This document shows, in pieces, positions 3,427 to 4,709 of a stretch of 4,709 bases of DNA. The position numbers and the translations under genes were made by a program. Numbering within the stretch: the stretch's first letter is position 1; each line of letters starts with the position of its first letter. This DNA is from Escherichia coli (GTDB taxonomy: Bacteria > Pseudomonadota > Gammaproteobacteria > Enterobacterales > Enterobacteriaceae), in assembly GCF_003334785.1 (NCBI RefSeq), contig NZ_QOWV01000045.1; one strand, 5' to 3'. The notes below the pieces were generated by a model. The model was not told the DNA's origin. It made no database searches and was given only the letters and a program-made list of their open reading frames with translations.

Positions 3427-3435
3427 GGGGTGTTA

Positions 3436-3981
3436 ATGCTTTTAAGTTTTAGTGAGTTAGATGTTCTTATTTATCAGGGGAAGGTTGGGGGTTTATTTCG
3501 TGAAAGAAAAAACGAAAGGATTGCTACAGACATTGATTCCAGAAACAAGTCATCATCAAGCAGTCATGAATATGATTCAGTTTTATCATTTCTATTTATT
3601 TGTGATAATGGAAAAGAAATAAATGTGAATTTAACAAATTGGAATATTAACATATTTCCAGGTCAAGAGATTGTCATTTATTTTGTGGAAAACTCAAAGA
3701 AAAACAAAAAAATACCATACATGATAAAAAACAAAAGCACATCGGAAGTGACTAATAATGTTCAAGAAATGTATAAAGAGTTTTTTTATACATCATACTT
3801 CAAACTGATAATACCTTTCCTTTTAATCATTTCTTACTTTATGTCATCCATATCTGTGGCTATCATGTCATTCGTTTTATATGTCATAATCAGAAGAAGA
3901 ATAGGAAAAGATTTCTTTTCAGAAATAAAAAGGAAAAGGTTAAAAAAAGAAGATATCATGGGGTTAGAGCACGTAATATAG
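3436..3981 (+). CDS. Hypothetical small membrane-anchored protein (181 aa from ATG 3436), AT-rich orphan gene of unknown function
   Basis: Uninterrupted 181-183 codon frame in DNA of roughly 25-30% G+C (by eye), where stop codons should be frequent. GGGGG (3425..3429) lies 6 nt before ATG 3436; GTG 3430 is an alternative start. The product has a polar N-terminal region with a Ser run, one long hydrophobic segment FKLIIPFLLIISYFMSSISVAIMSFVLYVII, then a basic tail RRRIGK...KRKRLKK. I recognise no family. Confidence 0.7.
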   Translation: MLLSFSELDVLIYQGKVGGLFRERKNERIATDIDSRNKSSSSSHEYDSVLSFLFICDNGKEINVNLTNWNINIFPGQEIVIYFVENSKKNKKIPYMIKNKSTSEVTNNVQEMYKEFFYTSYFKLIIPFLLIISYFMSSISVAIMSFVLYVIIRRRIGKDFFSEIKRKRLKKEDIMGLEHVI

Positions 3982-4028
3982 GGGCGACAGGTCCTTATAA
4001 GGGACCGTCCAGGGACCGGAGTTCCATT

Positions 4029-4070
4029 GCTACGCCGGAACCGCCGAAATTTCCGGCGTAGCTCTCTCTT
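4029..4070 (+). terminator. Candidate intrinsic terminator after the AT-rich gene
   Basis: Perfect 12-bp inverted repeat GCTACGCCGGAA (4029..4040) / TTCCGGCGTAGC (4051..4062) with a 10-nt loop, followed by the pyrimidine/T-rich tract TCTCTCTT. A second hairpin, GGTCC-TTATAAG-GGACC, lies at 3990..4006. The U-tract is weak, so the terminator function is tentative. Confidence 0.35.
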
Positions 4071-4088
4071 GCCTGGACGTTCTGTTGT

Positions 4089-4126
4089 GGGGGGTGAGGG
4101 CCAATGGAACGAAAGCGTACGGTAAG
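4089..4126 (+). mobile_element. Terminal inverted repeat (38 bp) of a Tn3-family transposon, Tn1000 (gamma-delta)-like; transposon interior lies to the right
   Basis: GGGGGGTGAGGGCCAATGGAACGAAAGCGTACGGTAAG matches from memory the Tn1000 repeat GGGGTTTGAGGGCCAATGGAACGAAAACGTACGTTAAG at about 34 of 38 positions. It also carries the Tn3-family hallmarks: GGGG terminus, TGGAACGAAA core, ACG..TAAG inner end. Orientation puts the element outer end at 4089. Confidence 0.65.
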
Positions 4127-4507
4127 GGCTCCGTTTGGGAAACGGACAATATTGTACGGTTGCGTTATCGCGGTAGGGTGTACTCCCGCGCTATACGGTG
4201 TTTTCAGGATAATTGGTCTTAATCGGATAACCTAAATGCGATACAGCAAGAGCGACAACTTAAAAGCGATTAAACCTGCCGCCGCCAGAACGGTACAGTC
4301 CCTGACACAGGCACCACTGGTATAATCCAGTAAAGAGCATATGGAGAACTTATCATGTCGTCACGCAACTCTATACATGATTTTATAATGCTGCTCCCGG
4401 CGCTGCTGTTTGTTGGTAAGCGTACAGCCTGAACCGTCTGGTCAGAATCTGACGAATTAGACAAAGTGGTGTCCACCAAATAAGTAGTGGGAACCAAAGT
4501 GTCAGAT

Positions 4508-4636
4508 ATGCAGAAAAATGTGACTCCCGGCAGGCGAAAAGGCTGCCCTAATTATCCTCCCGAATTTAAACAGCAGCTCGTTGCTGCCTCCTGTGAACCC
4601 GGGATATCCATCTCAAAACTTGCTCTTGAAAAGTAA
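4508..4636 (+). pseudogene. Short OrfA-like fragment of an IS3-family transposase (42 codons then stop)
   Basis: ATG 4508 translates to MQKNVTPGRRKGCPNYPPEFKQQLVAASCEPGISISKLALEK and stops. The (Y/F)xxEFK...V...SIS..A pattern is the N-terminal HTH lead-in of IS3-family OrfA proteins, which are normally about 100 aa. A TGAACCG motif 78 bp upstream (4430) resembles an IS3-type end. Weak evidence. Confidence 0.3.
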
Positions 4637-4709
4637 CCGGCTCATTTAAACCGTCTGGTCTGTTTCCTCCGGCTCTACAAAAATAATGTCCATCATTTTT
4701 AATGGACAC

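Follow-up and report, generated by a model that had tools for sequence, protein, structure and literature searches.

The 38-base terminal inverted repeat at positions 4089-4126 of the 4,709-nucleotide stretch of DNA analysed here (the window) is a solo relic rather than one terminus of a transposon that is still intact or simply interrupted, since neither a partner repeat nor a tnpA remnant is present in the source plasmid, pWP7-S17-ESBL-04_2. It is very probably the sole surviving piece of a Tn3-family transposon of the Tn1000/ISEc63 type, namely its transposase-proximal end, the rest of the element having been lost. The DNA from the repeat to the end of the window (4089-4709) can now be assigned to pieces, save for a few bases between them: the repeat itself, part of a Tn3-derived miniature element, a scrap of a toxin gene, the start of a small membrane-protein gene and two nested IS66-family elements, represented by their left ends. 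This segment encodes nothing and is inert, and at most it offers a putative passive binding site for a transposase acting in trans.

The repeat and its setting in the plasmid

The window is 100% identical to the Escherichia coli plasmid pWP7-S17-ESBL-04_2 (NZ_AP022179.1, 94,173 bp), with window position n corresponding to record position n+1573. The genes of this plasmid include eatA, astA, fimbrial genes and a type VI secretion cluster, and it is an E. coli virulence plasmid. An IncFII replicon (copB, the CopA RNA and repA1) lies in the window and is followed, in this order, by a Phd/RelE-type toxin-antitoxin pair, a 183-aa orphan gene and the 38-base repeat; the replication region upstream of the repeat is common to the IncFII, IncI-gamma and IncK plasmid lineage. 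The CopA RNA was matched by Rfam at 904-995, and a structured RNA in 4000-4709 was considered and rejected, as Rfam returned solely CopA and related replication-control matches (904-1033) and nothing in that interval. The orphan ORF (3430-3981) is AT-rich and encodes a C-terminal hydrophobic segment; it is shorter in E. albertii (L002) and in pS1400_89 (L019), and its product had no match among the NCBIfam families. Within the 76 bases to the left of the repeat, and outside the transposon relic, there is a perfect 12-bp hairpin at 4029..4062 (GCTACGCCGGAA, 10 nt, TTCCGGCGTAGC). The segment 4013-4163, which includes both this hairpin and the repeat, is absent from the IncK2/Z relative L018.

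The repeat (GGGGGGTGAGGGCCAATGGAACGAAAGCGTACGGTAAG, 4089..4126, plus strand, outer end at 4089) had been recognized in the initial annotation as Tn3-family and Tn1000-like, and this identification is borne out by 34 of 38 identical bases to Tn1000 and 36 of 38 to the tnpA-end repeat of an ISEc63-family element. The Tn1000 reference was taken from plasmid F, whose sequence the Tn1000 repeat matched exactly; 34/38 is the score against its gamma end (36 of 40 aligned bases by blastn), the delta end scores 32/38, and the blastn similarity to Tn1000 ends at about 4127. The closest autonomous relative found was in plasmid CP141738 (L020, 9001-15220): an intact ISEc63-family element of 6.2 kb, complete with transposase, resolvase and two repeats. 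Its tnpA-proximal repeat accounts for the 36/38 match and shares the same GGGGGGTGAGGG start, and its other repeat agrees at 30 of 38 positions (counted by hand). The proposal that the window holds the passenger or resolvase-distal end is therefore not upheld, the repeat being nearer to the tnpA-proximal end; and because it resembles the tnpA-end repeat of the nearest relative, the transposase gene is the part that was removed. The orientation given earlier, with the transposon interior to the right, is likewise correct, with GGGG at the left end of the repeat and TAAG at the right. The five bases outside it (GTTGT, 4084..4088), as read from the sequence, are a candidate target duplication. 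In CP141738 a MITESen1-family fragment (L020, 7691-7787) is found 1.2 kb beyond the intact ISEc63-family element, so that TIME debris and Tn1000-type elements are found together in another IncF plasmid too.

A transposase had been reported missing behind the repeat, and this was confirmed: no ORF in 4127-4709 exceeds 75 aa, and tblastn with Tn1000 TnpA and TnpR was empty in the window. The tblastn queries comprised Tn1000 TnpA, TnpR and the third ORF, together with a second Tn3-family TnpA, and were run against the window, the whole plasmid and the relatives. Neither TnpA gave a significant match anywhere in the plasmid, no Tn1000 protein remnants were found near the repeat in the window or its relatives, and the sole TnpR-like fragment in the plasmid lies beside eatA, about 79 kb off by coordinates. 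At the DNA level no similarity to Tn1000 was found past the repeat, res region included, whether in the window or across 8 kb of downstream sequence in L003. When the sequence was extended to the right, as had been advised, the whole plasmid yielded no partner inverted repeat and no tnpA, and neither tnpR nor res was seen near the repeat. No second copy of the repeat was found on either strand of the 94-kb plasmid with up to 12 mismatches in 38, and in particular no inverted partner within 50-500 bp of 4089-4126 in either window or plasmid. Among the interpretations first offered, a decayed or truncated element is thus the right one, since both partner repeat and tnpA remnant are absent from the plasmid. 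Solo Tn3-family repeats of this kind have already been documented (PMC4133298).

The E. albertii plasmid CP099889 was considered as a possible source of a partner repeat. The second site there turned out to hold an IS101-like copy that is truncated and points the same way (L017, 2582-2711, positions 1-141 at 84%), and the candidate was rejected. The same plasmid carries a separate intact Tn3-family transposon (L016, 27266-31121), the repeats of which differ from the one in the window at 10 of 38 positions.

Three relatives without the IS insertions, L003 (OW967796), L002 (E. albertii) and L019 (pS1400_89), show what follows the repeat where these are absent. In L003 and L002 a serine acetyltransferase gene is reached within about 660 bases after the repeat and is followed by a ProQ/FinO-like gene; in L019, which carries a deletion, the acetyltransferase gene is within about 380 bases of the repeat. 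This deletion of about 281 bp by our own arithmetic (L019, about 3633-3650) starts at base 17 of the repeat, ends inside the small ORF and removes the TIME fragment and the toxin scrap. The repeat had also been taken to mark the boundary at which the toxin-antitoxin and orphan-gene region was captured next to a transposon. This does not hold, because the gene order continues across it: toxin-antitoxin pair, orphan gene, repeat, truncated TIME, small ORF, acetyltransferase and ProQ-like gene form one colinear block, found in both IncFII (L003) and IncI-gamma/K1 (L019) plasmids. The breakpoints of L018 also do not fall at the repeat, as this IncK2/Z variant lacks the repeat between breaks at 4012 and 4164 and keeps 42 bases of the TIME body. 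All 28-36 plasmid records with the junction of repeat and TIME have it at this one locus and with the same downstream sequence.

The DNA behind the repeat

Directly inside the repeat lie the left 145 bases of a 236-base MITESen1-related TIME, a Tn3-derived miniature element (4126..4270, plus strand). By blastn, 4126-4270 aligns to positions 1-145 of the 236-base variant in L004 with 86.9% identity (E 7e-46), and 4166-4270 aligns to positions 62-165 of MITESen1 at 88.6%. The left repeat of the TIME (GGGCTCCGTTTGGGAAACGGACAATATTGTACGGTTGC) spans 4126-4163, and its first base is the last base of the 38-base repeat, a one-base overlap. The right 91 bases of the 236-base element, with the right repeat, are missing from the window, and no match to the right end of MITESen1 was found anywhere in the plasmid. 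The miniature element that the initial annotation had listed among its possibilities is thus present in part: the repeat at 4089 has no partner in 94 kb and does not itself bound such an element, but a truncated MITESen1-like element abuts it at 4126.

MITESen1 is a 256-bp TIME known from ISfinder, the sequence of which is given in Table S2 of Gomi and Yano 2026 (PMC13367494), and it matched the copies in L005 and L014 at 99.6-100%. The left boundary of the TIME is constant across independent contexts, where some copies read GGGGTCAGTTTGGATATAGAGAATTATTGTACGG.AAG, a Tn3-type repeat, and the right repeat of the MITESen1 variant ends in ...CGATCTCCAGACTGCCCC. A 2,420-bp segment of CP082832 (L004, 4003-6422) has a TIME copy at either end, the two in inverted orientation, and is flanked by the 5-bp duplication TTAAA; the empty site of this unit is preserved in the window at 398-402 (TTAAA), upstream of copB. 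The TIME end is defined independently by this duplication together with the empty site, and the 2420-bp insertion in L004 versus the empty site in the window attests to the mobility of the TIME-bounded unit. Its cargo is an IS110-family transposase gene and a hypothetical gene. Target duplications were seen at none of the four full MITESen1 copies examined.

Sequences of this family are widespread. More than 4,000 plasmid records share the bases that lie immediately inside the repeat, with none annotated among the matches listed (query 4084-4416), and these bases are also present in about half of the complete E. coli genomes; MITESen1-family pieces occur in about 2,400 of the 72,556 PLSDB records. 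The 236-bp relative (L004, 4003-4238) is without the 21-bp hairpin and has a left repeat starting with GGGC; full copies were found in 533 plasmid records, reaching 99% or higher in 245. In the 2026 TIME survey solely the 256-bp MITESen1 appears, in 264 genomes by our own sum (PMC13367494). On an E. coli Nissle-type chromosome a 53-base fragment of the left repeat of the TIME variant (L011, 4002-4054) lies among IS remnants beside fecIR, at the fec locus; it is one of roughly 2,265 chromosomal matching places, with a single copy in most of the records sampled.

Two other identities for this DNA were considered. The CUP (conserved upstream) repeats of IncN leading regions, as in pKM101, were rejected when 4127-4420 proved unmatched in R46, where only the 38-base repeat itself matches, at one site. 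A Xer, cer or res site in 4127-4205 was sought by eye against consensus sequences with no convincing match, and this segment belongs to the TIME instead.

The TIME gives way to a relic of an internal ParE/RelE-family toxin gene fragment (4264..4315, plus strand), which reads KPAAARTVQSLTQAP, equivalent to roughly codons 25-39 in the pO157 toxin. The 51-base local alignment to pO157 (L021) has four mismatches, counted by hand, and the translation agrees. The matched pO157 toxin gene lies downstream of an IncFII replicon, and in many plasmids RelE/ParE toxin genes cover the same 45-51 bases. The fragment suggests an exchange of one toxin-antitoxin module for another at this site.

Next to the scrap begins a 77-codon small membrane-protein gene, of which the first 20 intact codons remain in the window (4355..4415, plus strand, ATG at 4355). 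It is preceded by a Shine-Dalgarno motif (GGAG, 4343-4346, plus strand) and by a putative extended -10 promoter (TGgTATAAT, 4318..4326, plus strand), read by eye from the sequence and conserved in L003, L002 and L018; a two-hexamer scan found no canonical promoter for this ORF. The gene is cut by an IS at 4416, and the fused frame stops at a TGA at 4430-4432. It is uninterrupted in L003 (about 8396-8629), L002 and L018 and 5′-truncated in L019 (IncI-gamma/K1). Its product has one hydrophobic segment, which is N-terminal (MSSRNSIHDFIMLLPALLLVGWLVLVIILMF...), is unannotated and had no family match in NCBIfam.

From 4416 onwards, the lack of ORFs behind the repeat is due to two IS66-family elements, one nested in the other, of which the window shows the left ends. 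The outer one is ISEc22-like (4416..4632, plus strand); its left repeat GTAAGCGTACAGCC... begins with GTAAGCG. The left copy of its 8-bp target duplication, GTTTGTTG, is at 4408..4415, and the right copy follows ...ACGCTTAC in L001 (11138-11145), with the uninterrupted site preserved in L003. Its accessory tnpA can be read for 48 codons from its start (4487-4630, plus strand), and this stretch matches IS66 TnpA models; the downstream annotation of L001 gives tnpB and an ISEc22-family transposase. Nested in this tnpA is the left end of ISCro1, also of the IS66 family (4633..4709, plus strand), with the repeat GTAACCGGCTC... and its own tnpA starting at 4686. The left copy of its 8-bp target duplication, CTTGAAAA, is found at 4625..4632, and the right copy directly after ...GAGTCGCTTAC in L001 (8905-8912). 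The annotation of L001 agrees, with tnpA, tnpB and an ISCro1-family transposase at 6259-8874 and the remaining ISEc22-family genes thereafter.

Proposed history and alternative readings

In the order of events that we infer, a Tn1000/ISEc63-type transposon would have inserted downstream of the orphan gene, and the loss of its interior (transposase, resolvase, res and the other repeat) would then have extended to the inner edge of the tnpA-end repeat. The most plausible ways in which this could have happened are two, both of which we infer. By the first, a TIME would have landed on the inner edge of the repeat, and recombination with a further TIME copy would have followed; plasmids contain such elements at as many as five or six sites. 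By the second, the TIME would have undergone intramolecular replicative transposition, with deletion of the DNA separating it from its target. Both routes are compatible with the precise joining of the repeat to a TIME terminus. The TIME would later have been truncated against the toxin-gene scrap, and the two IS66-family elements would have arrived last. A counterpoint to this scheme is that the break between repeat and TIME coincides exactly with the inner edge of the repeat, as does the break in an independent solo copy of the pRS218 type. A random deletion would rarely break exactly at a repeat edge, and some directed process may have been involved.

Several other readings were weighed against this history. 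That the likeness to a Tn3-family repeat arose by chance has a practically negligible probability, given 34-36 identities in 38 to authentic repeats, with zero matches expected in shuffled sequence (0.00 for the 23-base core with up to three mismatches, in 200 shuffles of the 18-kb locus). The orientation of the repeat, and a window that stops 580 bases past it, would fit an end whose transposon is intact, or no more than interrupted, with its genes and partner repeat beyond the window or beyond the IS insertions. This is extremely improbable, as the whole plasmid holds no partner repeat, no MITESen1-type end and no TnpA similarity, and the IS-free relatives have the small ORF, the serine acetyltransferase gene and the ProQ/FinO-like gene directly after the repeat. 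A functional miniature or mosaic non-autonomous element, movable in trans and with the repeat at 4089 as its left end, would be in keeping with the TIME body lying directly after that repeat and with the mobilization of IS101-like TIMEs with Tn1000-like repeats by the Tn1000 transposase (PMC4133298, PMC13367494). It is nevertheless very unlikely, because an inverted second repeat of either type is lacking, the TIME body ends at position 145 of 236, and the IR1-TIME junction is confined to its one locus with the same flanks in all 28-36 records, with no sign of transposition.

A different question is whether the repeat, once stranded, was kept because it is useful. A single Tn3-family repeat can bind its transposase, and in the case of Tn3 and gamma-delta this can make the replicon immune as a target. 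Such a repeat can also support one-ended transposition (cited in PMC4133298). Retention for either or both of these functions would agree with the persistence of the locus in IncFII and IncI-gamma/K1 backbones and with the identity of the inner 31 bases (GAGGGCC...GGTAAG) in three locus variants, in which the outer G-run varies. The plasmids differ by 1-2% overall, however, so that conservation over 31 bases carries no weight; L019 is deleted past base 17 of the repeat and another relative is without it, with no apparent consequence, and the inner domain has two substitutions relative to ISEc63 and Tn1000. Retention for a useful function is thus regarded as quite improbable, and the repeat is best read as a relic of the Tn1000/ISEc63-type transposon.

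Comparison with known systems

The clarification has some value for annotation, as what appeared to be unexplained non-coding DNA beside a transposon end is now labelled piece by piece. MITESen1-type elements and their fragments are far commoner in enterobacterial plasmids than gene tables suggest, where they stay hidden because none of the copies examined was annotated, and TIME fragments can mislead the reading of adjoining transposon ends. Solo Tn3-family repeats, TIMEs (IS101, MITESen1, TIME244, IMU) and nested IS66-family elements have all been described already (PMC4133298, PMC13367494). The region adds one more example to kinds of debris already known; it is an ordinary decayed mosaic and implies no new biology.

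With the Tn1000 (gamma-delta)/ISEc63 family the window shares a 38-base repeat with a GGGG outer and a TAAG inner end, but it has one repeat only and is without tnpA, tnpR, res and any similarity past base 38. IS101, a 209-bp TIME of pSC101, likewise has Tn1000-like repeats without a transposase between them, and these agree with the window repeat at 30-31 of 38 positions; its body, however, is unrelated to 4127-4297, and the window has no second repeat about 209 bases away. The TIME copy in the window differs from MITESen1 in being the variant that is without the 21-base internal hairpin and has a left repeat starting GGGC rather than GGGG, and also in being truncated, devoid of its right repeat and fused to the repeat of another transposon in place of a flanking duplication. 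ISEc22 and ISCro1 are matched in their GTAA-initiated repeats, 8-bp target duplications and tnpA-tnpB-tnpC organization, and nothing about the two elements is unusual, one being nested in the other.

The nearest parallel to the relic itself is the solo repeat of IncF plasmids of the pRS218 type (L006, 5001-5038), which is of the ISEc63 type, matches at 35 of 38 positions and is also broken at its inner edge. It differs in lying at another locus, where it abuts a truncated replication-protein-like gene instead of a TIME; the reading frame of this rep-like gene runs into the repeat, and the fragment had no NCBIfam match. Roughly 500 plasmid records contain a 90-95% match to the window repeat, and those sampled were of the 37-base pRS218 type. 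Because two independent solo repeats break at the same inner edge, the transposase-bound inner boundary of a Tn3-family repeat might be a preferred point of insertion or recombination. The arrival there of TIMEs or other elements would then be a regular route by which transposase genes are stripped from such transposons, leaving solo repeats that could still give the plasmid target immunity; this reading is rather unlikely.
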